DNA from: a virus
Virus record (IMG/VR): IMGVR_UViG_3300044939_000036
Span: 1 to 34,757 of that record
Direction: 5' to 3' (one strand)
DNA: 34,757 bases
In this document: positions 7,828 to 28,844 of the stretch, piece by piece
How positions within the stretch are numbered: position 1 is the first letter of the stretch
Layout of the letters: each line of letters starts with the position of its first letter
The notes under the pieces: generated by a model
The model's database searches: none
The model's input: only the letters and a program-made list of their open reading frames with translations
What the model was told of the DNA's origin: nothing
Made by a program: the position numbers and the translations under genes

Positions 7828-8079
7828 ATGAGTATCGAACTCCTAAAGCGTTTTGCAGGCGCAAAACCCACTACAGGAAGGATTGTTCAGGTGATTGATG
7901 GGAAGTCCATCACGAGCCATGTGGGAAAACTGCGCGGCGCAATCGTCTCAGACATGAATGGGAACTACAAGCACGCAACGATTGAGGCGGCGTTAGCGTG
8001 TGCCAAGAACTTCCGGGATCGGTGCAAATCTCACCTTTCTGAAATCAGCCGCCAACGGCGCAGCAGGGCCACAGCATGA
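7828..8079 (+). CDS. Hypothetical protein (83 aa), lower GC
   Basis: ORF with an AGGA upstream. Composition differs from the core genome. Confidence 0.5.
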   Translation: MSIELLKRFAGAKPTTGRIVQVIDGKSITSHVGKLRGAIVSDMNGNYKHATIEAALACAKNFRDRCKSHLSEISRQRRSRATA

Positions 8080-8327
8080 AGGTCACCTTGAGCAGGGCCG
8101 ACGCAGCCCGCTACGGACGCCGTGGTGGCCGCGCGCGGGCGGCCATCGTCGCCCTCCACATCGAAGGCGAGGCGGTGACCATCCCGCGCATCGCCGCGCG
8201 GCTTGGAATCGCGCAATCCACCGCACGCAAACGAATCGAGGAACTCCGCACGCGCGGGGAGCCGATCACGTGGCAGGGGCTTGGATGTTCCAGCAGCACA
8301 ACCCGTGACTCAAATATCGCAAGCTAG
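8076..8327 (+). CDS. Small HTH protein (paralogue of 6778-7089)
   Basis: ATGA coupling with 7828-8079. Shares the motif described for 6778-7089. Confidence 0.6.
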   Translation: MKVTLSRADAARYGRRGGRARAAIVALHIEGEAVTIPRIAARLGIAQSTARKRIEELRTRGEPITWQGLGCSSSTTRDSNIAS

Positions 8328-8394
8328 ATCAATGACTTATTGCCGTATCCCGCCTCGTTTTTGGGAAATCGGTGACCCTATCGGAGACCATGCA

Positions 8395-8505
8395 ATGAGC
8401 GCACAGCTCGACCTCAACGACGTAGCAAAAGCGGCTGGCGCAACGATCTGCGGGGCCGAGATCGAGGCGGCTGCGTTGCGGGACATGTTCGGAGTTAGCT
8501 CATGA
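8395..8505 (+). CDS. Hypothetical micro-protein (36 aa)
   Basis: GGAG 8 nt before the ATG. ATGA overlap with the next ORF. Confidence 0.4.
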   Translation: MSAQLDLNDVAKAAGATICGAEIEAAALRDMFGVSS

Positions 8506-8711
8506 ACGATAACGCCCGTGAAGAACTCGAAAAGCTGTGCCAAGCGACTGACAAGACAAAGCGGTTCTTCAGAATTCACGCTTACGACAGACGCATTGCT
8601 CGCGGGGATGACTTTGCGGGCGATGCTTGGCTTGATAAAGCCAGCGGTCGGATTGCTTATTCTGCTGTCGGACATGATCGCAACGTATCAATGGGCATTG
8701 ACCAATCTTAA
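8502..8711 (+). CDS. Hypothetical protein (69 aa), low GC
   Basis: GGAG SD and ATGA coupling. Preferred over the overlapping ORFs 8518-8745(+) and 8337-8675(-). Confidence 0.5.
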   Translation: MNDNAREELEKLCQATDKTKRFFRIHAYDRRIARGDDFAGDAWLDKASGRIAYSAVGHDRNVSMGIDQS

Positions 8712-8722
8712 GTGGAGTAGAT

Positions 8723-8956
8723 ATGTGCGACATCGTGTTGATTGACGGAACGCTGTGCTCTATCCAAATGGAATTAATGGATAAGCTTGGTTCTGCCGAC
8801 TTAGTACCGGCACGGCAATTCGGCTATACGGATGAAGGCATAAGGCAGAGTTCGTGCCTCTGTCCTGTAGATATTGAGGCGACTGCAAAAAAGCATGGCT
8901 ATGAAGCCATCAAGATGTTCAATTCAACATACGATTGGCATTTGATTCGCCCGTGA
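8723..8956 (+). CDS. Hypothetical protein (77 aa), lowest-GC gene in the window
   Basis: GGAG SD (AAGTGGAGTAGATATG). Cys-containing, globular-looking sequence. Confidence 0.55.
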   Translation: MCDIVLIDGTLCSIQMELMDKLGSADLVPARQFGYTDEGIRQSSCLCPVDIEATAKKHGYEAIKMFNSTYDWHLIRP

Positions 8957-8986
8957 TGCACTGGCCGAGCACCTCGGAGGTGGCGA

Positions 8987-9154
8987 ATGAGCGTCCGTCC
9001 ACACCTACTCGTGCGAGTCACGCACGTGATCCGGGCGCGGCTGGCGGCAATGCGCTTCGGCCAGCCATCGGGCCGGGTGTTGGCGACCTACCGGCTGCCC
9101 AACCATCACCGACAGGCATCCTGGCGATCCCGGCGAAAACTAAACAAGCGCTGA
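8987..9154 (+). CDS. Possible very basic small protein (55 aa)
   Basis: GGAGG 6 nt before the ATG and high GC3. It competes with the alternative frame 8956-9216, which has a TGATG overlap with the previous gene. Confidence 0.3.
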   Translation: MSVRPHLLVRVTHVIRARLAAMRFGQPSGRVLATYRLPNHHRQASWRSRRKLNKR

Positions 9155-10057: not shown

Positions 10058-11017
10058 ATGGCGAGCATCCAGAGGCACAGAGACGGCTGGCGGGCGCAGG
10101 TGCGGCGCGGGAGCCAGCGGGACAGCCGCGTCTTTCGGACGAAGGCCGAGGCGGCGCGCTGGGCGTTGCAGCGCGAGGCCGAGATGCGCGGATCCAGGGT
10201 ACCAGATCACACCCTGGCGGATGCGCTCAAGATCTACATGGATGAGGTCGCGCCGACGCATCGTGGTGCGAGGTGGGAGATCATCCGGCTGCAGCGCTGG
10301 CTGGCACAGCCGTGGACGCAGACGCGGATGCGCGACGTCACGGCCGACATGCTCGCCGAGTGGCGCAATGCCCGTCTGCGCGAGGTCAGCGCGTCGTCGG
10401 TTTGCCGCGAGATGACCCTGCTGCGCAGCGTGCTGGAACATGTCCGCAGGCCGCCTCTGCGCTGGATCGAGACGAACCCATTCTCAGACGTTAAGCGGCC
10501 GCCTGCGCCGCCTAGCCGGAAGCGGCGCATCTCAGATGATGAGATCGCCAGGATCATGGCCGCGACCGGCCTGGATGATGGCCTCCGCGCCGACACGGCG
10601 ATGCAGCGGACGGGCCTTGCGTTCCTGTTCGCGCTGGAGACCGCGATGCGGGCAGGCGAGATCCTTGGGATGCGGTGGGAAGACGTCGGCCCAAAGTCCG
10701 TCACGCTGCCGCGCACAAAGAACGGTGACAGCAGGCGTGTGCCGCTGTCACCACGCGCGCGCGAGATTCTGGCGGTGCTTCCGCGTGGCCGGCCGACGTG
10801 TTTTGACCTGCACCCAGGCACGCGGGATGCACTCTGGAGACGCGCTGCGGCCGGGATCCATGACCTGCACTTCCATGACAGCCGCGCAGAGGCGATCTGG
10901 CGGCTGTCGAAGAAGCTGGATGTGCTGGAGCTGGCGCGGGTGATCGGCCACCGCGATATCCGCAGCCTGATGATCTACTACCAGGCCGATGCGGATGAGC
11001 TGGCGGATCGGTTGTAG
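10058..11017 (+). CDS. int: Tyrosine recombinase / phage integrase
   Basis: The catalytic region pattern fits (ETAMRAGEILGMRWEDV, TKNGDSRRVPL, HFHDSRAEA, GHRDIRSLMIYY). GGAGG SD before ATG 10058. Confidence 0.9.
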   Translation: MASIQRHRDGWRAQVRRGSQRDSRVFRTKAEAARWALQREAEMRGSRVPDHTLADALKIYMDEVAPTHRGARWEIIRLQRWLAQPWTQTRMRDVTADMLAEWRNARLREVSASSVCREMTLLRSVLEHVRRPPLRWIETNPFSDVKRPPAPPSRKRRISDDEIARIMAATGLDDGLRADTAMQRTGLAFLFALETAMRAGEILGMRWEDVGPKSVTLPRTKNGDSRRVPLSPRAREILAVLPRGRPTCFDLHPGTRDALWRRAAAGIHDLHFHDSRAEAIWRLSKKLDVLELARVIGHRDIRSLMIYYQADADELADRL

Positions 11018-11442
11018 TCACCGAATATCGGCGCGTACAACATCTGCGGCGTCACCCGCCACGGCTGCGTTCGGAAAAGCAGGACGCCGGACTGCTCAAT
11101 GGCCCACGCCACCAACTCCGAGCAGAACCACGCATCTTGATCCTGCCAGCGACGCCTGAAACCAATCCCGAGGATGCCGCGCCAATCGTAGGGCTTCCCG
11201 ATCTGACTGCGCGCCGCAGCGATAGCACGGTCTGCGTCGCCCGGCAGTTCAATGATCGCCACCTTCGTCGCATCCGCCATGAAATCCGCCAGCGGACGCT
11301 CACGGACGCCATGAATCGACGATGCCTCGATCACAGTTTCACCGGCCACCAGCGCCACATGCGACCACGGCGACCACAGCGCCGCGCGCAGAAACAGGCT
11401 CGGCAGACTGTGGTTGCGGCTGAAAATCACGCGCACGCTCAT
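10978..11442 (-). CDS. Permuted papain-like hydrolase (NlpC/P60 superfamily, YiiX/C92-like)
   Basis: The His block (WSHVALVAGETVIEA) comes before GKPYDW and the Cys block (WFCSELVAWA), which is the permuted order. ATGA coupling to the upstream gene. Last gene of the late operon. Confidence 0.6.
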   Translation of the reverse strand: MSVRVIFSRNHSLPSLFLRAALWSPWSHVALVAGETVIEASSIHGVRERPLADFMADATKVAIIELPGDADRAIAAARSQIGKPYDWRGILGIGFRRRWQDQDAWFCSELVAWAIEQSGVLLFRTQPWRVTPQMLYAPIFGDYNRSASSSASAW

Positions 11443-11813
11443 GGGAGCACCTTTTCGCCCCACCCAGCCCATCGGTGGATGTCGCGAAACCGCGTTGGCC
11501 GGACGGGCACAGGATTTTCAGGATCGGTCATATCCCAATCATCGGGTGCCACGTCCAGCCATGCCGTCTCGTTCAGCGTGAATCCCTCGACTGGCGTGCC
11601 ATCCTCATGCCACGATCCGATAGCGATGGGGGCGCGGCCCATCTGTGTCAGCGCGTCCAGCACAGGCTGGAGATACTGCTGCTCGCCGATGCCGTCCACC
11701 AACAGCCGCTCGTTGCGCTCGTTGATCACGCGCCACTGCGCGTACTGGTGAAACATTCCAGCCTGCTGATCGGTGAGCGCAGGGCCTAGCATGGAAAAGA
11801 CGAACGTGATCAT
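11439..11813 (-). CDS. Hypothetical protein after the fibre gene (possible fibre assembly factor, by position only)
   Basis: ATGA coupling at both ends. The start is chosen at ATG 11813. Confidence 0.5.
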   Translation of the reverse strand: MITFVFSMLGPALTDQQAGMFHQYAQWRVINERNERLLVDGIGEQQYLQPVLDALTQMGRAPIAIGSWHEDGTPVEGFTLNETAWLDVAPDDWDMTDPENPVPVRPTRFRDIHRWAGWGEKVLP

Positions 11814-12796
11814 GCGGTCACCTGCTGCAACTCTGCGTTGGTCATCAGCCACGGATAGAAACGGATGCGTTTAAAACGACTGCCGATTGCGCATGCGCCA
11901 TTGCCAGCGCCGATCTCGATCAAGTCTGGCAGGTTGGCGGGCAATGTACCCATCGTTCCGCGAGTATAGACATTCCCACCATTCACACACCCACGGCGAT
12001 TTTCATTTTGCATCGTCGCAGCCACCTTGATCCGCTGACCTGGGGAGACTAGGGTCGTGTGGATATTGAGCGCCGATCCCAGCCCTTCCCACTGCACAGG
12101 CCGCGGCCCGGCGGTGTTGTTGTTTGCGAGAAGATACCACCACGCATCCGTAAACCCTGTCGTTGTTTTTCGGCAAGACAGTGAGCGGTTGTATCCTGTC
12201 AGGTTGTAGGGTACGGTGAAATCGACATAAAGCGTGTGGTCGATATAGGGCACCTGCCCGCCCCAACTTGCATTCGTGATTGTCGCAGTATCATTAGCGC
12301 GCGTCGCAGCGGCGGTCGTCGTGGGAATCCACGACGTGGCGTAGCCAGGATCAACTTCAAGCTGTGCATACTGCACGTTGCCAGAGACGGTCAGCGTCAA
12401 CGGACCAGCGGTCGCCGTGAACACAAGTTGCGCCCGGTTCGGCCATGCGCCGGCGCTGTTGAGCGTACCGCTGTAACTGCCCGACAGCGTGATGCTTCCA
12501 GTGCCGTAGAAACTCAGTCGGTACGTAGCCGCAGACGTGGTGACCGTCTGCGTACTAAGCGTTTCGCTGTTGAGCAGCAGATTAGTGGCCTGAGCCTCAA
12601 GCAGCAGACCTAGCACTTCACCGGTGAACGGGTCATGGTCGATGCGCGGTACGTTGCTTCCAACTACCTCGATTGTGCCATTCGCTTTGAAACGACTTGC
12701 GGAGGATGGGCGAGTGAACACCACGCGCGAATCGAACATCGACCGCGTGAAATCAATCTCATCATATGGGCGTTGGATAAGTGACAGCGGAATCAT
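11810..12796 (-). CDS. Tail fibre / receptor-binding protein (328 aa)
   Basis: N-terminal pattern PRIDHDPFTGEVLGLLLEAQATNLLLNSE and a beta-rich, Thr/Ser/Asn-rich body. It ends ..RIRFYPWLMTNAELQQVT, like LamG/ConA-type fibre tips. Lower GC. Confidence 0.65.
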   Translation of the reverse strand: MIPLSLIQRPYDEIDFTRSMFDSRVVFTRPSSASRFKANGTIEVVGSNVPRIDHDPFTGEVLGLLLEAQATNLLLNSETLSTQTVTTSAATYRLSFYGTGSITLSGSYSGTLNSAGAWPNRAQLVFTATAGPLTLTVSGNVQYAQLEVDPGYATSWIPTTTAAATRANDTATITNASWGGQVPYIDHTLYVDFTVPYNLTGYNRSLSCRKTTTGFTDAWWYLLANNNTAGPRPVQWEGLGSALNIHTTLVSPGQRIKVAATMQNENRRGCVNGGNVYTRGTMGTLPANLPDLIEIGAGNGACAIGSRFKRIRFYPWLMTNAELQQVTA

Positions 12797-13254
12797 GTCA
12801 GCAACCCTGACGGATAGAGCGTGAGATTCCCAGCACTGTCAATCGCCACCCCCACATCTTCGACCGAAGATAACACAGTAGAAACAGACCACGCCGCGCC
12901 GCGTGCCGTTTTCACAGACGCGCCGCTGAACGTGCATGTTTTAGCCGCGCTCGCGTGCTGCTTGATCCGCACACGAACATCGGCGCCGACGCCCGCAGGC
13001 GGAAGTCCGGTAAAGCTGATCGTTGTGTTTTCAGTCAGCGTCAGCAGGAAAATTTCGGCTCCACTCGAAAGGTCAATGACGGCTGCACCGTTACTGCTTG
13101 AAATTGTTTGCATCTTGTATAGGTAGCGGCCCCAGATCGCACCGACTGGGAATCGGCGAGGATTTCCGCTTGCCTGATCGACGCCAACGACGCTATCAAA
13201 CGGGCCTGGCGCGGCAGATGGCAGATCTGCGATTGGAATGATGTCTGTACTCAT
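12793..13254 (-). CDS. Tail-fibre-region structural protein (153 aa)
   Basis: Coupled to the fibre gene and beta-rich in composition. Confidence 0.55.
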   Translation of the reverse strand: MSTDIIPIADLPSAAPGPFDSVVGVDQASGNPRRFPVGAIWGRYLYKMQTISSSNGAAVIDLSSGAEIFLLTLTENTTISFTGLPPAGVGADVRVRIKQHASAAKTCTFSGASVKTARGAAWSVSTVLSSVEDVGVAIDSAGNLTLYPSGLLT

Positions 13255-13270
13255 GTGTGACTCTCCGCAC

Positions 13271-13669
13271 TCAAAGAACTGCCGTCACATCCGCATGCCC
13301 TGACACCTGCGCCGCCTGCAGGCTGATCCGGATGCTGGCGTCAGAAAGAAGAATGTCCGCCCAGGCGAACAGCCCGGTCACCGGCTCGCCGAGCACGGCC
13401 AGCAGGCATTCGCGGGTGATCGCCTCATCGCCGAGTTCATCAACACGCGCCGCCGTGACGCTGTGCTTGAGCTCGGTCACCACCGGCCGGCCGTCTGCAG
13501 TGGTGATCGGCTGTCCGTTTTCGTCGATCGCACGCGCCTTGGCGTGGTAGGCCACACCCGCTGGGACGCGCTTGCGGGTGCAGGACACGGCCACCAGATC
13601 GCCTGTGTCCAGCTGCACCACCGTTTCGCCTGGGCCTGCTGCGATGTCTGTTCGCTTGGTGTAGCTCAT
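13271..13669 (-). CDS. Hypothetical tail-region protein (132 aa)
   Basis: ATGA coupling to 13666-14709. Confidence 0.55.
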   Translation of the reverse strand: MSYTKRTDIAAGPGETVVQLDTGDLVAVSCTRKRVPAGVAYHAKARAIDENGQPITTADGRPVVTELKHSVTAARVDELGDEAITRECLLAVLGEPVTGLFAWADILLSDASIRISLQAAQVSGHADVTAVL

Positions 13670-14709
13670 GGCTCAGCCTTGATGTTGTGGTGTGCCAGTA
13701 GATGATCGCTGGAATCGCCGGTCCACACGAACGAGTCTTCGCAGGTGAACTGGATGACCCATGCGGGCCCGATATCCTCGACGCGCTCGACCACCGCGAC
13801 GGTCCATTCGCCTTCGCGCAGGTAGGCCAGCGCCTGGCCGACTGTGGCGGGCGCGAGCAGCGCACCACCGCCGGCGCGGCGCAGCGGCGCGGTGCGCGAG
13901 CAGGTCAGCGTGCGGCCATCGCCGAACACCACCCGGACGCACTCCACGCGCGTGCGGCGCAGGTGGGAAATCCGGCCCCAGCGGCCGTCTTCCAGCATGG
14001 CGTAGTCACCTTCCTGGGCATCCCGCCACCGGATCGGCACAGGCTCACCGTCTGCGCCACGGATCAGCAGCCAGGCATCTTCGCTCGGGCAGCGCGGCCC
14101 ACTGGCACCGCCGCCGCCGCCGACATCGCCGCCTCCTCCAGTCGTTCCGCCACTGCTGGACGCAAAGGTAACCGTGAGCCGGTCGATCAGGATCCGTCCA
14201 GCCGCTGCCATGCTGGCGACGCTATCTGTGGTGACGCCGAGCGTGCGGCTGCCTCCCTGCCAGTACGGATCATCGTAGTAGAGGTACACCGTGCGGACTT
14301 CGCCAGCCGTGCCGGTGATCTCGGCGCTGCTCGGCCCGTAGCTGATCTGTTTGTCGCCGACCTGCAGCACGCCGGCGGAGACGCTGATCGTGATTGTCGT
14401 GGAGTTGCCTGACCAGCTCAGCTGCGTTCCACTAATCCACCTGCTTGCGACGTTGCCTGCAACGACCGGAGGGAGACCTGTCGCGCTCGTCCTGGTTCCG
14501 TTCGGAACCTCGAACGTGATCGGCACCCATTCCGATGCGAGACCACCCGGCCCGATGGAACGGGCCTGGCCCTCATAGGTCACGCCACGGATCAGGCCGG
14601 GGATGGTGATGTTGGTCGCATCGGGCGGGTAGCGCCCAACCGACCATGGCTGGCCGCTGCCGGCCACGCGCCAGCGAACCTCAATGGAGAGCGTCGGCGT
14701 TCCCATCAA
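13666..14709 (-). CDS. Tail-tip protein: FN3-like N-terminus, central beta domain, Gly-rich linker, C-terminal Hint/BIL-like domain
   Basis: The FN3-like segment is TLSIEVRWRV..ITIPGLIRGVTYEGQARSIG..SEWVP. The linker is SSSGGTTGGGGDVGGGGGASGPR. After it come Cys207 (CPSEDAWLLIRGADGEPVPI..GDYAMLEDGRWGRI) and an ending ..FVWTGDSSDHLLAHHN-IKAEP. Confidence 0.75.
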   Translation of the reverse strand: MMGTPTLSIEVRWRVAGSGQPWSVGRYPPDATNITIPGLIRGVTYEGQARSIGPGGLASEWVPITFEVPNGTRTSATGLPPVVAGNVASRWISGTQLSWSGNSTTITISVSAGVLQVGDKQISYGPSSAEITGTAGEVRTVYLYYDDPYWQGGSRTLGVTTDSVASMAAAGRILIDRLTVTFASSSGGTTGGGGDVGGGGGASGPRCPSEDAWLLIRGADGEPVPIRWRDAQEGDYAMLEDGRWGRISHLRRTRVECVRVVFGDGRTLTCSRTAPLRRAGGGALLAPATVGQALAYLREGEWTVAVVERVEDIGPAWVIQFTCEDSFVWTGDSSDHLLAHHNIKAEP

Positions 14710-17261
14710 TACACCTCCATGTCTTGCCAGCGGTAGCCGATGTAGCCGCTGGAGCGCTCCACGCGCATGGTGACCTCAGGCGTGGTGGTGCCGACGTCGT
14801 TTGGCGTATCGTGGTACTGATCCGAGACGATCACCACGATGGTCGGCGGGTCGGGCGGCTCGCGGTAGGCCGTGCCACTCACCTCGCTGGTGATCGAGGC
14901 CGGCGGGTTGGCCCAATACGGCGCCACGCGCGCGTCATAGCGGACGGCCGTGATCGTTGCGGCCAGATCAGATGCAGGCTTGATGCCGGTAATCAGCAGC
15001 CGGGTGGTCACCCGCGTAGTCTCGCCGACCACCGCAACATCACCTGGCGCAACGCCGGACGGCATGCTGCCGAGGTAGAACGTGTCGGACTCCGGCGCAT
15101 GTGGCGTCGCGGCAACGACCACGCTGCTCAGATCGCTGCGGCGGATCTGCACGCTGTAGGACTTCGAGGCATCGGTGACGATGCGCTGGTCAAGAACCAG
15201 CGTCGCCGCCGTGCCATTCGGGCCACCGGCGGTCAGGCTGACAATGCGGCCAGTGCCTGCGCCCCATTCCGGCACGTCATGCGCGACGTCAACGCAGTCG
15301 CCGCGCGAGCAGCCGAGGTTCGCAATGTCAGTCTCCCAGCTATACACGTGCGGGCGGAACTTGGCCTGCGCGAGGTGGAACCTGCCGACGCGCCAGGCGG
15401 TGAACGCGTCGCAGGCCATCCGCAGCTCAAGCGTCTCGAACTCTTGCGGCTCCGGTGCCGTGCTCGCGTTGCCCCTGGCATCGACGCCACGGTAGCTGTA
15501 GCCGTCATCCAGCACCAGCACTTCGTCGATCTCCCAGTAGGCCTGCGGGTTGCGGAAGCGCACCTTCAGCGCGTGCGGAAGTCTGGAAAACACCCGGCTG
15601 ACCACAAAGTTGCGGCTGTCCTGCGGCGTGAACAGCATCGTCGGCAGCGTGCTGCCATCGTCGAAGATCACGCCGTAGCGGCCATCGCGCGTGCTCAGCG
15701 AGCCGAGCGCGCAGCCGAGCACCTCATCGAGCAGCGCCCGCGCCGTGGTGCGAGAATCCACCACGCCGCGCACCTTGAAGCCGTTGGCGTCGCAGAACTG
15801 CGCGAACGCGGTGAGGCTGGCAAGGTCGATCCGGCTGTCTGGCACGTGGACGCTGAGGGCAGGGCATGACCGCAGCAGCCATGCCGTCACCCAGGCCGGG
15901 TTGTAGTTCAACTGCGGCGCGCTCCATGTCTGCGTCGCCGGGTTATACACAGGCACCTTTTGATGCACCACGCAGCTCAACGTCTGCAGCGTGCCGTTCA
16001 GCTGCTCGCTGGCCTTGATGCGCATGCACAGCTTGACCGTGCCGGTTTTACTGGGGTTGGTCGGCCGAATGCTGCGCAGCACGGCCCAAACAGCATCGCC
16101 AATGCGGCTGCTGCTGTGGCTGCTGCCCCAGTTGGTGGTGCCGCGAGTGACGCGGACGTCATATTGCCCTGGCGTCACCGGCCACGCCACGCCGACCGCG
16201 AACGGCTTGCGGCTGCCAGATCGCACCTGTGCATTGGCCAGCGTGCCGCCACTCGGCACCAGCCCCGTGATGCGCGCGCCGGTGGTCGGGACGGGCGTCC
16301 AGGTGTTCGCACCGGCCGGGCTGTATTCGATTGTCAGATACGCCGTGACGGGCACCTCGTTGCCCTTGTCGTTCAGACCGAACAGGCCCTGCTGGAACAC
16401 CACGTCCAGGCTGATCTCGGTGACGTTCGGGCTGGTGGTGCGCACCACCTGCGCGCCGTCGTTCATCGCTGCACTGACTGCGACTTCGGCCACATCGCTG
16501 GTGTAGAGCGTCGGGGTCTTGGTGATTTCGTACTGCACGTCACTGAACGAGGAGATATCGGACTCCCCGATCTTGATGTCAGTGACCTGCATGTACACCG
16601 TCGGGTCGTTCGGCCCGCCGTAGTCATGGCCGAGGTCGAACATGAGCCGCTGATAGCTGGTATCGCCGAGCACCTCGCTGTACGGCGCGGCCGCATGCGG
16701 CGGGAACACTTTGCACTCGCCGAGCACCAGCGGGATCGGCCCATACGGCGAAACCTGATTACTGCTGCCGGTCAGCATGTTCCACCGGCCAGGCGCTTCC
16801 GATGACGCACTCCCTAGACTAGGGAGCTTGGGCGGAGGAATCAGCGCGTTGATGGCCAGCATCCCGACCAGGCTGATCGCGCTGGCAAGCCCTGCGCCAG
16901 ACAGTGCAAAGCTGCCGATCTCGAAGCTCACGCCAGACAGGTACGCGCCCGAGGCCACGCCCGCCGTAAAGACCGTCAGCGCGACCAGCGCCAGCGTGCG
17001 CAGGATCTTGCCGCCACCACGGCCACCTGCCGGCATGACCGTGCAGTAGATCGGCACCATCGACTTCGGCCTGACGCGGCCCCACAACTCGCGCGGCACC
17101 TCATGCCCGCCGATCTCGACCCGCAACGTGGCCGCGATCTCCGCGCCCTGCGCGATTTCGTCCAGCATCTGCTGGATGGTCTGGCCAGAACGCACGGCGA
17201 TGACGCCGGCGTCAGCGCTGAACGGGTGCGAGCGAAGGATCAGCGGAGACTCAGCCTGCAC
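14706..17261 (-). CDS. Host-specificity / tip-attachment protein J-like, with an N-terminal gpI-like segment (851 aa)
   Basis: GTG 17261 with GGAGG 8 nt upstream. The N-terminus has ..IYCTVMPAGGRGGGKILRTLALVALTVFTAG.. (gpI-like Gly run plus TM). It is followed by NQVSPYGPIPLVLGECKVFP and a long beta-rich body typical of J. Confidence 0.85.
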   Translation of the reverse strand: MQAESPLILRSHPFSADAGVIAVRSGQTIQQMLDEIAQGAEIAATLRVEIGGHEVPRELWGRVRPKSMVPIYCTVMPAGGRGGGKILRTLALVALTVFTAGVASGAYLSGVSFEIGSFALSGAGLASAISLVGMLAINALIPPPKLPSLGSASSEAPGRWNMLTGSSNQVSPYGPIPLVLGECKVFPPHAAAPYSEVLGDTSYQRLMFDLGHDYGGPNDPTVYMQVTDIKIGESDISSFSDVQYEITKTPTLYTSDVAEVAVSAAMNDGAQVVRTTSPNVTEISLDVVFQQGLFGLNDKGNEVPVTAYLTIEYSPAGANTWTPVPTTGARITGLVPSGGTLANAQVRSGSRKPFAVGVAWPVTPGQYDVRVTRGTTNWGSSHSSSRIGDAVWAVLRSIRPTNPSKTGTVKLCMRIKASEQLNGTLQTLSCVVHQKVPVYNPATQTWSAPQLNYNPAWVTAWLLRSCPALSVHVPDSRIDLASLTAFAQFCDANGFKVRGVVDSRTTARALLDEVLGCALGSLSTRDGRYGVIFDDGSTLPTMLFTPQDSRNFVVSRVFSRLPHALKVRFRNPQAYWEIDEVLVLDDGYSYRGVDARGNASTAPEPQEFETLELRMACDAFTAWRVGRFHLAQAKFRPHVYSWETDIANLGCSRGDCVDVAHDVPEWGAGTGRIVSLTAGGPNGTAATLVLDQRIVTDASKSYSVQIRRSDLSSVVVAATPHAPESDTFYLGSMPSGVAPGDVAVVGETTRVTTRLLITGIKPASDLAATITAVRYDARVAPYWANPPASITSEVSGTAYREPPDPPTIVVIVSDQYHDTPNDVGTTTPEVTMRVERSSGYIGYRWQDMEVY

Positions 17262-17679
17262 GGGCCACCTCCCCGCGATAGCGCCAGAAACCATCCACGC
17301 GGCGCTGCCAGATGCGGTCTGTCCAGCGGGCGATGCGTGACGTGCCGTCGTTCCCGCGCTCATCCGGCTGCGGCCAGTGCAGGAACTGACCTGGCCCGAC
17401 CACCAGCCCGACATGCCACGGCTTGCCGGCCAGCCGGAAGATCACCAGATCGAACGGCTGCGGATCGCCCACCTGCACGAAATCGCGGACCAGCCCATCG
17501 CGGATTGCGACACTGATCCCATCGCTGTCCATGGTGCCTGCGTAGCCTGCGCCGTAGTCCGGCAACTCGATGCCGCGCAGCTCGCGCAACACCATGCGTA
17601 CGCCGCCCCAGCAGTCCGCGCCCGTGCGGTCGCGGCCGTGATCGCGGAAGGGCAAGCCGATGAAATCTTCCAGCCTCAT
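17251..17679 (-). CDS. NlpC/P60 tail peptidase (gpK-like, without an MPN domain)
   Basis: Catalytic Cys block GADCWGGVRMVL and His block KPWHVGLVVG. The position between the L-like and J-like genes fits. Confidence 0.8.
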   Translation of the reverse strand: MRLEDFIGLPFRDHGRDRTGADCWGGVRMVLRELRGIELPDYGAGYAGTMDSDGISVAIRDGLVRDFVQVGDPQPFDLVIFRLAGKPWHVGLVVGPGQFLHWPQPDERGNDGTSRIARWTDRIWQRRVDGFWRYRGEVARAG

Positions 17680-18152
17680 ACGAACAGCCCCGGACTGGAC
17701 GTCGGCGTGTAGCTCTGCGCGGGCACGGCCTGGTTCAGGAAGTCTTCTTCGTAGCCAAGCGTCGCAGTGATCACCACCGCGTCATAGTCCACGCTCAGGA
17801 TCGAAAACTCGAACGGGCCCATCTCGACCGTATCCGGGCTGCTGGCCAGCACGATTTCAAGCGTGACTTGAGGGACGCCCGAATACTCATCCAGTGCTCG
17901 CGTCACTTCGCGGTCGATGTTGTCCACCCGCAACCGGGCGGTCGGCGCGGCGGCATCGGTGTCTTCCGGCAGCAGCACCTCGAACGGGTAGGGATAGAAC
18001 GTGCCCGATGCACGCACCAGCGGCTGCGTGTCGTTGACGCAGCGCAATGTCGGAAGGCCTGGCCCTGAGATGGTCAGGCAAGCCAGGAACACCTCGGCGG
18101 TTTCCCTGGCGATGATGGCGCGGGCGGCGGCGGCAGAAAGCTGTCTCGGCAT
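17676..18152 (-). CDS. Minor tail protein L-like (DUF1833-like)
   Basis: Position, plus the pattern ..FLACLTISGPGL..LRCVND..FYPYPFEVLLPEDTD. The start is chosen at ATG 18152. Confidence 0.65.
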   Translation of the reverse strand: MPRQLSAAAARAIIARETAEVFLACLTISGPGLPTLRCVNDTQPLVRASGTFYPYPFEVLLPEDTDAAAPTARLRVDNIDREVTRALDEYSGVPQVTLEIVLASSPDTVEMGPFEFSILSVDYDAVVITATLGYEEDFLNQAVPAQSYTPTSSPGLFV

Positions 18153-23432: not shown

Positions 23433-24208
23433 AGGCTGCCCCCCTTGAACTTGGCGTTCTCCACAGCCTTTGCCAGTTCGCGCTCAAGCTGGAACTTGAA
23501 GATCTGCGCGTACATGCGCTCCGCAAGCTGGAAGATCGGATAGCGGGCCTTGTAGGTGGCCGGGCGGACGAACGCCATGATGATCCGCACGGCGCTGCCA
23601 AAGCCCGTCCGAACACGCTGATAGATGCCGGGCCGTAGGCCCTTGCTTTGCTTCGGCACGGCGAAATAGTCGCCGCGACGGTCGCCGCGCTTTGCCTCGC
23701 GCCGCTGCCGGCGAGCGCGGCTTTCTGCCGTCTCGTTTTGCAGCGGGTCGAAGCGCGCGCCGAGCTGCGACAGGATCTTGTTCATCTGGCTGCCGGCAAT
23801 GTTGCCGAAGGCATCGAGCTGCGCGCCGCGCCCTGGCACCGCCTGCATGCCGGCCGGCATCAGTCCGGCCGCCTGCAGCCGCTTTTCAAAGGCCTTGGTC
23901 GCACGCGAGCCGCCATACACCTGCGCTTGCAGATACTTCGCCGGCGGCGTGCCCTTGAAGGCCTCATCGCGGATTTTGACCACCGCATACGGCTTGGACT
24001 TGGTGGCCTTTTCGTACACCACTGCCCGCATGGTCAGCGGGGTCGGCCGGTCGAACACGCGCGGCATGATTTCCGCCCAGCGCTGGCGGATCTCCCATGC
24101 TGTTGCGTTGGCCGCCTGCATTGCGGCAAACGGCAGCTGCTGGCGCTCCAGCGCGGTGAAGGACCGCGCCAACGCGTTGTCTGGATCGACGCCGATGCGC
24201 AGCTTCAT
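23429..24208 (-). CDS. Hypothetical neck-region structural protein (259 aa)
   Basis: Start chosen at ATG 24208 (ATGA overlap with the o-spanin stop). The longer track ORF would overlap the spanin. Confidence 0.5.
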   Translation of the reverse strand: MKLRIGVDPDNALARSFTALERQQLPFAAMQAANATAWEIRQRWAEIMPRVFDRPTPLTMRAVVYEKATKSKPYAVVKIRDEAFKGTPPAKYLQAQVYGGSRATKAFEKRLQAAGLMPAGMQAVPGRGAQLDAFGNIAGSQMNKILSQLGARFDPLQNETAESRARRQRREAKRGDRRGDYFAVPKQSKGLRPGIYQRVRTGFGSAVRIIMAFVRPATYKARYPIFQLAERMYAQIFKFQLERELAKAVENAKFKGGSL

Positions 24209-24498
24209 GGCTCGACCCTCGTTCCGGACAGCGCCCGCACCGCCTTGCGGTCGGCATTGGCGCGTTCCAATTGCGCCTTGCGCTCGGCGGCGACCATCGG
24301 GCACTGCGACAGCGGGCCCTCGGCAATCGGCAGCGGGTCGGTGAGCTCCGCAGGCACGTCGACGTACACCTCGCGGGTGACCGTGACCACCTGCGGTTTG
24401 ACAATCACGCCGCCGGGCAAATCGGGTTTGCTGGCACGGCTGCAGGCGGCGAGGGCGGCGATCAGCACCATGGCGATGGCGAAGGCAGGCGCACGCAT
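24205..24498 (-). CDS. o-spanin (outer-membrane lipoprotein, Rz1-like)
   Basis: MRAPAFAIAMVLIAALAAC carries an LAAC lipobox. 97 aa, Pro-containing. Directly follows the i-spanin (TGATG overlap). Confidence 0.7.
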   Translation of the reverse strand: MRAPAFAIAMVLIAALAACSRASKPDLPGGVIVKPQVVTVTREVYVDVPAELTDPLPIAEGPLSQCPMVAAERKAQLERANADRKAVRALSGTRVEP

Positions 24499-24917
24499 CA
24501 GTAGTCCCTCAGCATCGGGCAGGCCGCGTCCATCGCCTGCAGCGCAGCGGCGCAGCCGGTGGGCTTGGTGGCGAAGCGCCGGGCGAAATCGTCGCGCTCG
24601 CGCTTGGCCTTGGCGGCCTCGGCATTGGCAGCGGCCACGGCCGCAGCCGCCGCACGGGCAGCCGCTGCGGCGCGGGCCTCGGCGGCAGCCTGTTCCTTGC
24701 GCTGCTGCTCGAAGACCGCATCGTAGGCGGCGTTGGCCGCTGCGCAGCCCTCCGCTTTGCCCTTCCAGGCATCGAGCGCCGTGGTCGCGGCATCGCGCTG
24801 CGCGATGGCCGCATCGCGCTGGCTGGCCAGCACACAGCCGCGCCCGGCCAAGACAATGCACAGCAGCAGCAGGCTGCCGGCGACGGGCTTCAGGACGGTG
24901 GCCGAGAGCCAGTTCAT
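24498..24917 (-). CDS. i-spanin (Rz-like)
   Basis: N-terminal TM (VAGSLLLLCIVLAG) followed by an Ala/Gln/Glu-rich coiled coil. ATGA coupling to the endolysin. Confidence 0.65.
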   Translation of the reverse strand: MNWLSATVLKPVAGSLLLLCIVLAGRGCVLASQRDAAIAQRDAATTALDAWKGKAEGCAAANAAYDAVFEQQRKEQAAAEARAAAAARAAAAAVAAANAEAAKAKRERDDFARRFATKPTGCAAALQAMDAACPMLRDY

Positions 24918-25750
24918 GCCTGCACCGCCAGTCGCGCCGTGGCGCGGAAACGTCGGCACAGGCCCTCGCCATCGGCCCGATGGCGGAAGCGCTCGCACAT
25001 GGCGATGTGCGCATCGGCGATGCACTGCACGTCTGCGGCAGGCACGCACTCATCGCGCAGGCGGCGCATCTCCGCCCGCGACTCACCGCGCATGCTCGCG
25101 CCGCGCGCGTACACGGTGACCACCAGCGCGCCTTGCGCATTGGGCGGCAGGCGGTCCCAACCGTTCTGGAACGTGCGTTCCGTCAGCCGGGCGTAGGCTG
25201 GCAGGCTCACGCCCGTAAAGACCTGCTCGGCCATCGGGAATGGCGTCTTGACGTCTTGGCGCTCGGCGCGATAGGCGCGGCACGGCGCGAAGCCGCGCAC
25301 GCCGCTGCCATCCTTCAGGGCTGCGACACGCGGATGCACGCGCCAGTCGCTTTCGATTCGCGCCGGCGGCTGCACGCCCAGGTCATAGCCGATGCCGATT
25401 GTCGGGCCGCTAATATCGCCAGGGCAGGCGAAGCCCTGCAGACGGGCTTGATAGTAGGCCGGGGAAACAACTTCCTGCTCAATCAGCAGGCTGACAGCCG
25501 CAGGCGCGACCGCCGCAGGGGCGGGCACGTCCTGCACAGGCGATTCAACCACGTCCTGCACGATGGCCTGCACGTCGGCTTGCGTCTCGATCAGCGGCAT
25601 CGACACCGCCTCGGCCGCCGTCTGCTGCACCTCAGCCGCAACGGGCGCGACTGCCTGCTGCACGGCCTCAGCCGTGCGCTGGACATGCTCTGGCCTGGCG
25701 CATCCGAGCACCGCGCACAGGGCCAGTACGAGCATGATCCGCTCCATCAT
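24914..25750 (-). CDS. Endolysin candidate: lipobox-type signal peptide, VQ/A/P-rich linker, lysozyme-like C-terminal domain
   Basis: MMERIMLVLALCAVLGC, then PGDISGPTIGIGYDLG, which resembles the D-x5-T-IGIG core of T4/pesticin-type lysozymes. Lies between the holin and the spanins. Confidence 0.55.
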   Translation of the reverse strand: MMERIMLVLALCAVLGCARPEHVQRTAEAVQQAVAPVAAEVQQTAAEAVSMPLIETQADVQAIVQDVVESPVQDVPAPAAVAPAAVSLLIEQEVVSPAYYQARLQGFACPGDISGPTIGIGYDLGVQPPARIESDWRVHPRVAALKDGSGVRGFAPCRAYRAERQDVKTPFPMAEQVFTGVSLPAYARLTERTFQNGWDRLPPNAQGALVVTVYARGASMRGESRAEMRRLRDECVPAADVQCIADAHIAMCERFRHRADGEGLCRRFRATARLAVQA

Positions 25751-26885: not shown

Positions 26886-28844
26886 TTAGCCGTTGCGGAC
26901 GGCGCCGCGATAGTCGATTGCGGCCACGCCGTAATCCAGGCGGACCTTCCAGCGGCTGCCATCGACGCTGAAGCCTTCTTCCTGGTCGAGGAAGGGCATG
27001 TCGTTGCCTTCGAGGAAGGCGACCTCGATGACCGGCGCTTCGGCCGGATCCGCGAACAGGTACCACTTGGTGTCGGCGATGCGCGGGGTGTCGATGACCT
27101 CGCGGAACAAGCCGGCAATGACGTTCGGGCGCTGCAGCTTGTTGGTGGCGTCCGGGTCATACTGCGAGCTGTTGAGCACACGCGCGGCGCTGCCATAGAC
27201 CAGACCGCACAGGAAGATCGCAGGCCGCAGGTCAAGGTAGTCGTTGCCGCTGACGTCCTTCTGACTTGCCATCTTGACGCGGGCGGCATCGACAGAGGTC
27301 ACGGTCGGCGCAGCGGCCGCATCCAGGTTGCCATGCTCATTCGAGAACAGCGCGAAGCCGTCGGCCATCACCGGGTTGCTGGCCAGCAGGGCATAGACGT
27401 CCGCCTCGACGGTGCGGGCGGCAGCGCGGCCCAGCATGGTTGCCGCGCCGATGAAGGCGCCGAGGTCATCGTTGATGATGGCCTGCCGCGACAGGTTGAT
27501 GATGTTGCCCTTGGTGCCGGCGGTGATGCTGGCCTTTTCGCCGTCCGGGATCGCCTTGTTCTTGAACTCACCGAGTTCGCTCAGCGCATCCAGATTGCCC
27601 AGGCTGCCAACGCGGTAGCGGTTGTGCGCCCGGAAATCGCTCACCGTGCCAACAGCGCAGAACCGGCGCCAGGTATCAGCGGCGACGGCATAGCCCGACT
27701 GCAGCGACTTGTGCATGGCGTTTTCCAGCAGCACCGGGAAATCGCTGGTGGACTGCGTGAACGCACGCCCGACCATTTCCAGCACGCTCATGCCATCGGT
27801 GCGCACGCCGGTGCGCTCCAGGCAATGGCGGGCCAGCTCGCGCATGGACAGGCCGCGCACCGGGTTGGCGCCATCGACCACATAGCGAGACTTGGTGGCG
27901 GGGTTCACCACCATGGCGCGGGCCAGGATGGCATCCACGGCGGCGCCACGGAACTTGTCGGCCTCGTCCGTGCCGGCCTGCACGCGGTTGAAGGTGCCGC
28001 CAGACTTCACGTCGGCAGAGACCTTGGCGTCCAGGATCATGGCGCGCACCTGGTCGATGGTGCGGCCGGCACGGATGAACTCGGCCGCCTTGTCATCCAT
28101 GCCGTGGCGACGGCAGAGCTCGACGATTTCTGCGGCACGCGACAACGCCTCAGCGGGATCCGGCGTCGGCGTGGTGGTGACAGTGTTGGACTGGTCCGCC
28201 TCAGCGGCGGCGCGATGTGCAGCGTCTGCTGCGGAAGCGATCTGAGTCATGGTGGTTTCCTTGGGGTTGAGCGCCGGCGCGGCGCGGGTCAGCACGCACG
28301 GCACGCCGGCCTGCGTGGTCTGGTGGCTGCGGATTGCAGCGGACGGATCAGCGGGCACCGTCACGAAGCTGATTTCGTAGGGCGTCCACCGAATGGCGCG
28401 GTAAACGGGAACGTCTCCGCCGACCTCGACCTGATACGCCTGGACGGTGTAGCCGACAGAGACATTGCGGATGATGCCGCCCAGGATGTCGGCGACGATG
28501 CCGGCCACATCCTCGCGCTGGCTCAGCCGAATCGTGGCGCGGCCTTCGCCACCCTCGATGGTGGCCGCCTCAATCACGCCGATCTGGGCATCGACGCTGG
28601 TATCGTGGTTGAGCAGGACGGGCGCATTGCCGGATTGCAGCCGCGACATGTCCACCGCCTCGGGCGACATGTCCAGCTCTTCGTCATAAAACGCGCCTTC
28701 CCACGGGTCGAACCGCCGGACACGCGCACCGCGCCCCCAGCTGACCTCAATCGTGCCGGCCTCGGCGTTGTAGCTGGACGGCAGCAACCGCGCCTGCATG
28801 AGCTGCGGCGGCATGAGGCGGGTGATGGTTTCGGTGTCCTGCAT
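26886..28844 (-). CDS. Prohead protease / scaffold / major capsid fusion protein (652 aa)
   Basis: The N-terminal roughly 175 aa look like an HK97-type prohead protease (..APVLLNHD..GVIE..). A helical linker follows. The C-terminal capsid region has SDFPVLLENAMHK..INLSRQAIINDDLGAF. Confidence 0.8.
   Translation of the reverse strand: MQDTETITRLMPPQLMQARLLPSSYNAEAGTIEVSWGRGARVRRFDPWEGAFYDEELDMSPEAVDMSRLQSGNAPVLLNHDTSVDAQIGVIEAATIEGGEGRATIRLSQREDVAGIVADILGGIIRNVSVGYTVQAYQVEVGGDVPVYRAIRWTPYEISFVTVPADPSAAIRSHQTTQAGVPCVLTRAAPALNPKETTMTQIASAADAAHRAAAEADQSNTVTTTPTPDPAEALSRAAEIVELCRRHGMDDKAAEFIRAGRTIDQVRAMILDAKVSADVKSGGTFNRVQAGTDEADKFRGAAVDAILARAMVVNPATKSRYVVDGANPVRGLSMRELARHCLERTGVRTDGMSVLEMVGRAFTQSTSDFPVLLENAMHKSLQSGYAVAADTWRRFCAVGTVSDFRAHNRYRVGSLGNLDALSELGEFKNKAIPDGEKASITAGTKGNIINLSRQAIINDDLGAFIGAATMLGRAAARTVEADVYALLASNPVMADGFALFSNEHGNLDAAAAPTVTSVDAARVKMASQKDVSGNDYLDLRPAIFLCGLVYGSAARVLNSSQYDPDATNKLQRPNVIAGLFREVIDTPRIADTKWYLFADPAEAPVIEVAFLEGNDMPFLDQEEGFSVDGSRWKVRLDYGVAAIDYRGAVRNG

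Follow-up and report, generated by a model that had tools for sequence, protein, structure and literature searches.

Protein splicing, Hedgehog maturation and the release of toxins all depend on HINT domains, which are also much-used tools of protein engineering. In many inteins, loss of the block-B His or a change at position F:4 cripples the N-S acyl shift; in the few natural inteins that lack the block-B His, another residue stabilises the tetrahedral intermediate, and extein residues can contribute. Class-3 inteins carry a Trp-Cys-Thr (WCT) motif at B:12, F:4 and G:5, with the nucleophile in block F. Bacterial intein-like (BIL) domains have no +1 nucleophile and are found in the variable parts of bacterial proteins that are not themselves conserved; their products arise mainly by N- and C-cleavage. 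Here we describe a HINT-fold domain at the C-terminal end of a tail-tip protein of 347 amino acids (aa), encoded in the viral record IMGVR_UViG_3300044939_000036 (positions 1 to 34,757; this whole stretch of 34,757 nucleotides is the window in what follows). The domain belongs to a BIL-like HINT family that is mainly associated with phage tail tips and has its own catalytic signature. Its parts lie in the window as follows.

13684..14091, minus strand: HINT-fold domain, Cys207 to Asn342, 136 aa (translation, AlphaFold2, Foldseek, family profile)
14089..14091, minus strand: Cys207, intein position 1, predicted nucleophile of the N-S acyl shift
13882..13908, minus strand: equivalent of block B, LTCSRTAPL, residues 268-276
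13714..13761, minus strand: equivalent of block F, WVIQFTCEDSFVWTGD, residues 317-332, with Gln320 as F:4
13684..13701, minus strand: block G, LLAHHN, residues 337-342
13669..13683, minus strand: C-terminal tail IKAEP, residues 343-347, then the stop codon

The domain begins with CPSEDAW at Cys207 and ends with DHLLAHHN at Asn342, and 13684-14091 is exactly 136 codons long, from CPSEDAWLLIRG... to ...FVWTGDSSDHLLAHHN. Its equivalent of block B contains Cys270, Ser271 (B:7, a Thr/Ser position) and Ala274, which takes the place of the usual block-B His, and its equivalent of block F aligns with LIDIEVSGNHLFYAND of the gp41-1 intein, F:4 corresponding to Asp107 of that protein. In block G, His340 is G:5, His341 is the penultimate His, and Asn342 is the terminal Asn, which is predicted to cyclise. 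The tail opens with Ile343, a non-nucleophile, at +1, followed by Lys344 at +2.

The HINT assignment rests on structure and on sequence, because Foldseek and a family profile (A5) both find inteins. Homologues were searched for among 5.8 billion proteins, and the 15 that bear the C-terminal domain (alignment A2) were the input for an AlphaFold2 model of the domain, which is all-beta, with a mean predicted local distance difference test score (pLDDT) of 94.3 and a predicted template modelling score (pTM) of 0.88. Foldseek listed 50 PDB matches, every one of them an intein, a BIL domain or a Hedgehog-C domain, and 47 had E ≤ 0.001. The gp41-1 intein came first (E 5e-7, template modelling (TM) scores 0.74/0.82), and the others included class-3 DnaB inteins, the NrdJ-1, RadA, Prp8, RecA and DnaE inteins, Tetrahymena BIL2, a BIL domain of Clostridium thermocellum (2lwy, E 3.7e-5) and the Hedgehog autoprocessing domain (1at0, E 7.5e-5). 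When the whole protein was modelled independently, the Hint domain again had a high pLDDT, of at least 90, and Foldseek gave the same intein matches. At the sequence level, profile A5, built from 41 diverse family members, matched the gp41-1 intein among PDB sequences at E 1.6e-5, and the next seven matches were all inteins (E 0.1-0.3). More limited queries were less informative: the narrow profile of 15 sequences found two inteins in the PDB at E of about 1, so that significance was reached only with the 41-sequence profile; phmmer with the single protein matched PDB entries only in its fibronectin type III (FN3) part and gave no intein match; and Pfam, PHROGs and NCBIfam scans of the 347-aa protein and of its last 154 residues returned nothing, even at E ≤ 1. 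From the model and the profile together, we conclude that residues 207-342 form a genuine HINT-fold domain. The best BFVD matches to the domain model were five unnamed or "uncharacterized" entries (A0A6J5T0C5, A0A142EZL0, A0A292GC38, A0A6J5Q527 and A0A6J5MFV5; TM 0.75-0.85, identity 16-22%), three of them from uncultured Caudovirales, one of these three being labelled only "Fibronectin type III". All five outrank the inteins annotated in terminases, helicases and polymerases, and they probably belong to the same family.

The family itself is large. A HMMER search with A2 over 1.84 billion cluster representatives (50% identity) retrieved 566 proteins at E ≤ 1e-3 and 298 at E ≤ 1e-10; the signature statistics given here come from 178 retrieved proteins, from 145 complete domains and, for the C-junction, from 212 junctions. 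Cys1 is present in 100% of 101 aligned N-termini and in 145/145 complete domains, with Pro or Val next to it. Block B reads L-x-Cys(97%)-Ser(94%)-x-Thr/Ser-Ala(99%)-Pro(91%)-Ile/Leu, B:7 being Ser in 94% and Thr in 6%. The consensus of block F is V-Q-H-I-T-V/C-E..F-W-A-G-D, with His at F:4 in 78% of the family where the 347-aa protein has Gln320, and the domain ends with His(99%)-His(100%)-Asn(100%). After the Asn there are mostly 3-9 residues, of which the first is Leu, Ile, Met, Lys, Ala or Arg (Cys 0/212, Ser 4/212, Thr 2/212), and Lys occupies +1 or +2 at 201 of the 212 C-junctions. On the other side, a Gly/Ser/Thr-rich linker leads to a -1 residue that is usually small. The motifs are invariant among relatives of only 30-50% identity. 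In the HMMER alignment to gp41-1, LtCSttApl pairs with IICSEEHLF and VqhItVe with LIDIEVS; therefore, the canonical block-B His is Ala across essentially the whole family, and G:5, which is Thr in gp41-1, is an invariant His. A Cys/Cys/His/His metal site was also considered and dropped, as gp41-1 carries the same block-B Cys.

An earlier note on this DNA, made from the letters alone, had placed a Hint or BIL-like domain at the C-terminus of this protein. AlphaFold2 with Foldseek and the profile match to inteins agree with it, its coordinates and quoted motifs (Cys207, LTCSRTAPL, ...HHN, IKAEP, Ile343 at +1) are exact, and the Pfam, AlphaFold and Foldseek check that it called for gave no Pfam match and a HINT fold. 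It had further suggested, from the altered block B, that the domain may be a divergent or partly degenerate Hint. Thr-x-x-His is indeed not intact, but the altered block is not decay, because Ala stands in 99% of the 178 members beside a conserved Cys-Ser; judged by this conservation, we take the Ala to be a fixed, family-defining substitution. The note overlooked the most distinctive features, namely the near-invariant Lys at +1/+2 and the extra His before His-Asn, and its verdict that Ile at +1 makes splicing impossible was too strong. The chemistry that it proposed, self-cleavage with possible ligation, is still plausible.

The same conservation bears on whether the domain does anything at all, since it might be a catalytically silent Hint domain kept on the mature virion as a knob at the distal end, with a structural or receptor-binding role. 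The 347-aa protein has neither the block-B His nor the F:4 Asp, no module lies further out than the Hint domain, which is swapped in the manner of receptor-binding domains, and the monomer model of the domain is compact and confident, all of which would suit such a knob. However, the residues that stay invariant at about 30% identity are the catalytic positions and the junctions and not a surface patch, the Ala at B:10 is fixed at 99% where neutral decay would leave variable residues, and Hint-less orthologues occur in the same gene order, directly downstream of the J-like gene. We thus regard a silent knob as distinctly unlikely.

Existing resources do not recognise the family: 0/121 members matched Pfam HINT or intein models at E ≤ 0.01, and the public names of the members are only "hypothetical" or "uncharacterized". 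Two small distant members, P0151 and P0182, carry the precomputed Pfam accession PF26745.1, which is absent from the Pfam copy used; a rescan of the two proteins gave nothing relevant. The accession may stand for the N-terminal part of these proteins or for their Hint domain, and in the latter case the family would have been modelled very recently. Our literature searches found no paper on HINT domains at the ends of tail fibres, only terminase and replication inteins and pre-toxin HINT domains.

Among described systems, the nearest relatives of the tail-tip Hint domain are minimal phage-type inteins, and its junction residues and contexts are A-type-BIL-like, though no Pfam or NCBIfam model detects the family. 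The naturally split, cyanophage-like gp41-1 intein (6qaz, 6riz) is the best structural match and the only significant sequence match, and the two share the Cys-Ser pair at the start of block B and a minimal size of about 125-135 aa. However, gp41-1 is a true splicing intein with the block-B His, Asp at F:4 and Thr at G:5, whereas the tail-tip domain has Ala, Gln (mostly His in the family) and His at these positions and is without a +1 nucleophile. That the closest solved relatives (gp41-1 and the class-3 DnaB inteins) are true inteins would fit a canonical mobile mini-intein spliced by the class-1 route, but we give this practically no credence: the +1 residue is Ile here and, in the family, never Cys and Ser or Thr at only 6/212 junctions, there is no homing endonuclease and no block-B His, and the domain does not seem to occupy a conserved site of a conserved protein. 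Hint-less orthologues do end just past the same Gly linker, but the position of the domain, 3-9 residues before the C-terminus in many unrelated surface proteins, is not typical of inteins. The class-3 inteins (Mycobacterium DnaB; 6rix, 6bs8) form the second-best structural group (E about 1e-6) and likewise have family-specific conserved residues at F:4 and G:5. They lack Cys1 and carry Trp-Cys-Thr, whereas the tail-tip domain has an invariant Cys1, with Leu276 (Leu/Ile in the family), Gln320 and His340.

The A-type BIL and pre-toxin HINT domains (C. thermocellum BIL, 2lwy) share the fold (Foldseek E 1.4e-5 to 3.7e-5 across two models), the N-terminal Cys, the C-terminal His-Asn, the non-nucleophilic +1 residue and the occurrence in variable, non-conserved secreted or surface proteins. 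There is no match at the sequence level, the family profile missing 2lwy at E ≤ 10. Unlike them, the tail-tip domain has the block-B Ala, the extra His at G:5 and the Lys at +1/+2, and it is usually followed by 3-9 residues, whereas a toxin domain follows the A-type BIL or pre-toxin HINT domain. B-type BIL domains have every splicing motif of inteins but the C-terminal one, while the invariant His-Asn is present here, which sets the two apart. The Hedgehog Hog domain (1at0) has the same fold (E 7.5e-5), also stands C-terminal to the functional part of an extracellular protein, and is removed via a Cys thioester according to the literature; it has a sterol-recognition extension and no conserved terminal His-Asn, where the tail-tip domain has five residues after the Asn and an invariant His-His-Asn. 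In terms of class marks, the domain shows the fold, the sequence homology and the Cys1 of the HINT superfamily, with Ser271 and Ala274 in place of the Thr-x-x-His of block B; it shows the penultimate His and terminal Asn of class-1 inteins, with Ile343 in place of the +1 Cys/Ser/Thr; and it shows neither the combination of a missing Cys1 with WCT that defines class 3 nor the sterol region of Hog.

Autoprocessing is the economical reading of this signature, because the fixed residues (Cys1, Ser/Thr at B:7, the penultimate His and the terminal Asn) are the catalytic ones of inteins. We consider it rather likely that autoprocessing removes the Hint domain, the resolving step being either hydrolysis or ligation of the IKAEP tail to Arg206, the -1 residue at the end of the Gly-rich linker. 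In the folded protein, Cys207 would attack the Arg206-Cys207 peptide bond in an N-S acyl shift and form a thioester; Asn342, aided by His341, would cyclise and so sever the five-residue tail; and resolution of the thioester would then free the tip protein of its Hint domain, so that the mature form would end at or just after the Gly linker. Such a product would resemble the orthologues that naturally have no Hint domain. Another residue probably makes up for the missing block-B His, and His340 at G:5 (together with the F:4 His in most members) and/or Lys344 would be candidates. His340 and the F:4 position should lie within the active centre, because B:12, F:4 and G:5 make up the class-3 catalytic motif; the active-site geometry assumed here is that suggested by homology.

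Several points weigh against this reading. The 347-aa protein has Ala274 at the block-B His position and Gln320 at F:4, and compensation by a bulky -1 residue, known from the literature, would not be general, since the -1 residue of the family is usually small. If shedding by N-terminal cleavage were all that the domain is for, there would be little reason for His-His-Asn and Lys to be so strictly conserved. In addition, all of the autoprocessing chemistry is inferred.

Because His-His-Asn and Lys are strictly conserved, the reaction at the C-junction appears to matter, so ligation variants stay plausible. One of them is BIL-type splicing, in which an amine of the released tail (the alpha-amine of Ile343 or the epsilon-amine of Lys344) would attack the thioester after cyclisation of Asn342, giving a tip that ends ...GPR-IKAEP through a peptide or isopeptide bond. 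The invariant His-His-Asn would place the C-junction reaction under selection, and the Lys found at +1/+2 in 201/212 junctions shifts between the two positions, which points to a role of its side chain. In about one sixth of the members, another Gly linker and a longer C-terminal polypeptide follow, which shows that the domain can sit as a genuine insertion inside a protein, and the literature reports, for a BIL domain, a ligation that proceeds without nucleophilic side chains. The tails IKAEP, LKPDPTP and KVPYEPPP also resemble the Pro/acidic ends KPGDPTQPE and DPGEAVQVQ of Hint-less proteins, but this likeness is loose. Moreover, BIL domains yield mostly cleavage and not ligation, and the addition of five residues brings no obvious benefit and could simply be encoded. 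Taken on its own, we therefore hold BIL-type splicing to be unlikely. The Lys at +1/+2 may also replace the missing +1 Cys/Ser/Thr or the block-B His, a chemistry undescribed for HINT domains, to which we attach only a small probability. As a substitute for the +1 nucleophile, its epsilon-amine would capture the thioester at the end of the Gly linker and give an isopeptide-"spliced" fibre tip; alternatively, the thioester would be passed to an external amine, and the fibre tip would be covalently anchored.

The remaining parts of the protein, and the gene upstream of it, show where such a reaction would take place.

13666..14709, minus strand: whole gene of the distal tail-tip protein, from the list of open reading frames (ORFs); 347 aa if counted from the TTG start, 346 aa if counted from the ATG that follows
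14506..14697, minus strand: FN3-like domain, about residues 5-68 (phmmer against the PDB; beta strands in the AlphaFold2 model, pLDDT 80-90)
14167..14451, minus strand: beta-rich "YLYYDD" tail-tip domain, about residues 87-181 (motif YLYYDD..GG..LG invariant in alignment A1)
14092..14160, minus strand: Gly-rich linker, residues 184-206, SSSGGTTGGGGDVGGGGGASGPR (pLDDT below 50)
14706..17414, minus strand: J-like gene, upstream of the tail-tip gene, for a 902-aa lambda-J-like central tail-fibre protein

The modules thus follow one another as FN3, beta domain, Gly linker, Hint domain and five-residue tail, and the full-length AlphaFold2 model shows them as separate beads on a string; residues 7-85 match fibronectin type III chains of the PDB at E 8e-4 to 0.03 (phmmer). 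The 902-aa protein belongs to phrog_31, "central tail fiber J" (E 8e-83), and carries Pfam FNIII-A_GpJ (E 2e-13). The stop of its gene overlaps the start of the 347-aa gene, and the 347-aa protein is therefore a distal component of the tail tip; the central tail fibre is split here into a 902-aa J-like protein and the 347-aa protein. The earlier note's description of a tail-tip protein with an FN3-like and beta-rich region and a Gly linker ahead of the Hint domain holds in this setting, given the J-like neighbour, the FN3 matches, the model with its low-pLDDT linker, and the fusion of the same modules to long J-type proteins elsewhere.

All 29 homologues of the 347-aa protein are syntenic after a J-like gene. 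Fourteen of them are only 192-216 aa long, lack the Hint domain and end 2-15 residues past the same Gly linker, whose Gly residues are invariant in long and short homologues. The short form (locus L001) and the long form (locus L002) share the gene order of J-like gene, tip gene and a conserved 132-140-aa gene. The Hint domain is thus dispensable for the tip-protein family. In the pair P0003 and P0009, the sequences are 91% identical upstream, whereas the Hint domains are only 30% identical; therefore, the Hint cassette has been exchanged at the linker, and the domain is a modular cassette on a flexible Gly linker at the distal end of the central tail fibre. Two further ideas were dropped: a frameshift-prone linker yielding short and long forms, as no obvious slippery run was seen by eye in the linker DNA, and the downstream 132-aa gene as a dedicated partner, as it is conserved with or without the Hint domain.

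The exchange of the cassette between near-identical tip proteins, as seen for receptor-specific modules, would also fit a Hedgehog- or BUBL-like transfer, in which an external nucleophile resolves the Arg206 thioester and links the tip to a virion protein or a host surface molecule. Hedgehog-C passes its N-domain to cholesterol (as known from the literature), the structural matches include BIL domains of the Tetrahymena BUBL locus (6y75), and the last copies of tandem Hint proteins that end in HHD or HHS, without Asn or tail, could perform the N-terminal reaction only. On the other hand, only five residues follow the Asn, and there is no adduct-recognition region comparable to the sterol-recognition region of Hedgehog; the invariant His-His-Asn and Lys would be needless for a simple transfer; and no acceptor was identified, the 132-aa gene, which is conserved irrespective of the Hint domain, not being a dedicated partner. 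We consider such a transfer very unlikely, and autoprocessing that sheds the domain remains the reading that we prefer.

Beyond the close homologues, the top family representatives most often carry the domain where a phage central tail fibre has its distal end. Of 119 representatives that have 110 residues or more ahead of the domain, 56 show the "YLYYDD" beta domain 12-30 residues before Cys1. Long J-type proteins of other phages (1000-1900 aa, with Phage-tail_3, Rcc01698_C or FNIII-A_GpJ) terminate in this beta domain, the linker and the Hint domain. The whole arrangement is also present in a prophage of Stenotrophomonas sp. MMGLT7 (locus L003), where a gene for an acetylesterase fibre comes next. 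Other partners of the Hint domain are collagen repeats, tail-collar and tail-tip fibre domains, carbohydrate-binding modules and type-IV-pilin-like N-termini. This distribution is that described for BIL domains, in variable regions of non-conserved bacterial proteins, and not that of inteins.

Some layouts depart from the common one. Small non-phage proteins have "LK" after the Hint domain, then another run of Gly and a tail rich in Trp and Asp, for instance ...HHNMKAGPGGGTDPWDWDDWWFPISG...; the Gly run and the tail are found after the Hint domain of a 243-aa protein on the chromosome of Undibacterium seohonense (L004:5890-6621, plus strand), whose neighbours are housekeeping genes (Tex, PrmC, RPE65), and the same layout occurs in P0103, P0127, P0135, P0137, P0156, P0158, P0168 and P0171. 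Tandem Hint pairs with a fixed five-residue spacer (HHN-KK-x-G-F/Y/W-C...) are found in P0031, P0033-P0037, P0039, P0067, P0070, P0085, P0102, P0108 and P0115. The last copy in P0031, P0033 and P0034 has neither Asn nor tail, so that these proteins stop at HHS or HHD, and P0034-P0037 have type-IV-pilin-like N-termini (N_methyl, PilS). The tandem layout recalls the BIL-Ubl-BIL genes of ciliates.

Self-removing modules at the C-terminus of tail fibres are known with a completely different fold. The Peptidase S74 chaperones of K1F endosialidase and of the T5 L-shaped fibre are C-terminal fibre modules thought to be removed autocatalytically after assembly by a Ser-Lys dyad in a trimeric helical domain, which is unrelated in fold and chemistry; the earlier note had drawn this functional parallel. 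No Pfam match to Peptidase S74 was found in the 347-aa protein, and the fold of its C-terminal domain is HINT. A large family, with at least 566 representatives at 50% identity, has escaped the Pfam and NCBIfam models, and its catalytic signature is rewired, in that the block-B His is missing, the domain ends in His-His-Asn, and a conserved Lys follows directly beyond it. An active domain would represent a new maturation step for siphophage tail tips and a natural test case for catalysis of the N-S acyl shift without the "essential" His, and it could provide compact (about 136 aa) self-cleaving or ligating tags. If capture by Lys or by an external amine were true, tail fibres, collagen-like fibres and pilin-like proteins would share an enzyme-free device for C-terminal ligation. 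The exchange of cassettes between near-identical tip proteins also raises the question of a contribution to host specificity.

The window as a whole is the structural module of a lambda-like siphophage and also encodes the large terminase, portal, a protease-capsid fusion, the major tail protein, minor tail proteins and a tape measure of 919 aa. Neither blastn of window 13000-18000 nor tblastn of the Hint domain matched any of 50,697 deposited phage genomes, and a single-protein search of 185,579 species genomes found no relatives; related loci were obtained with alignment A6, built from the largest subfamily. Downstream of the 902-aa J-like gene, the distal tail-tip region (11810-14709, minus strand) is a chain of short genes of 347, 132, 153 and 328 aa with overlapping or abutting starts and stops, parts of which are fused in other phages into single J proteins of 1000-1900 aa. 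The 153-aa gene has a weak Ig_GpJ_C match (E 0.028), and the 328-aa gene is a phrog_5939 tail protein with a weak Laminin_G_3 match. The fraction of G and C (GC) is 0.56-0.61 at 8001-9000 and 11001-13000, compared with 0.65-0.68 elsewhere; the second dip spans the last tail genes (11810-13254) and would fit a recent exchange of host-range genes. A 311-aa ORF at 24205-25140 (minus strand), whose C-terminal 90 residues match Rz-like spanin families (E 6e-10), sits inside the head-tail block in a region with a GC of 0.71 and many overlapping ORFs, so that its gene call and placement are uncertain. The protease-capsid fusion is a single 652-aa ORF at 26886-28844 (minus strand), which matches phrog_4523, "major head and protease protein" (E 1.5e-198), and is apparently a fused prohead protease and major capsid protein.

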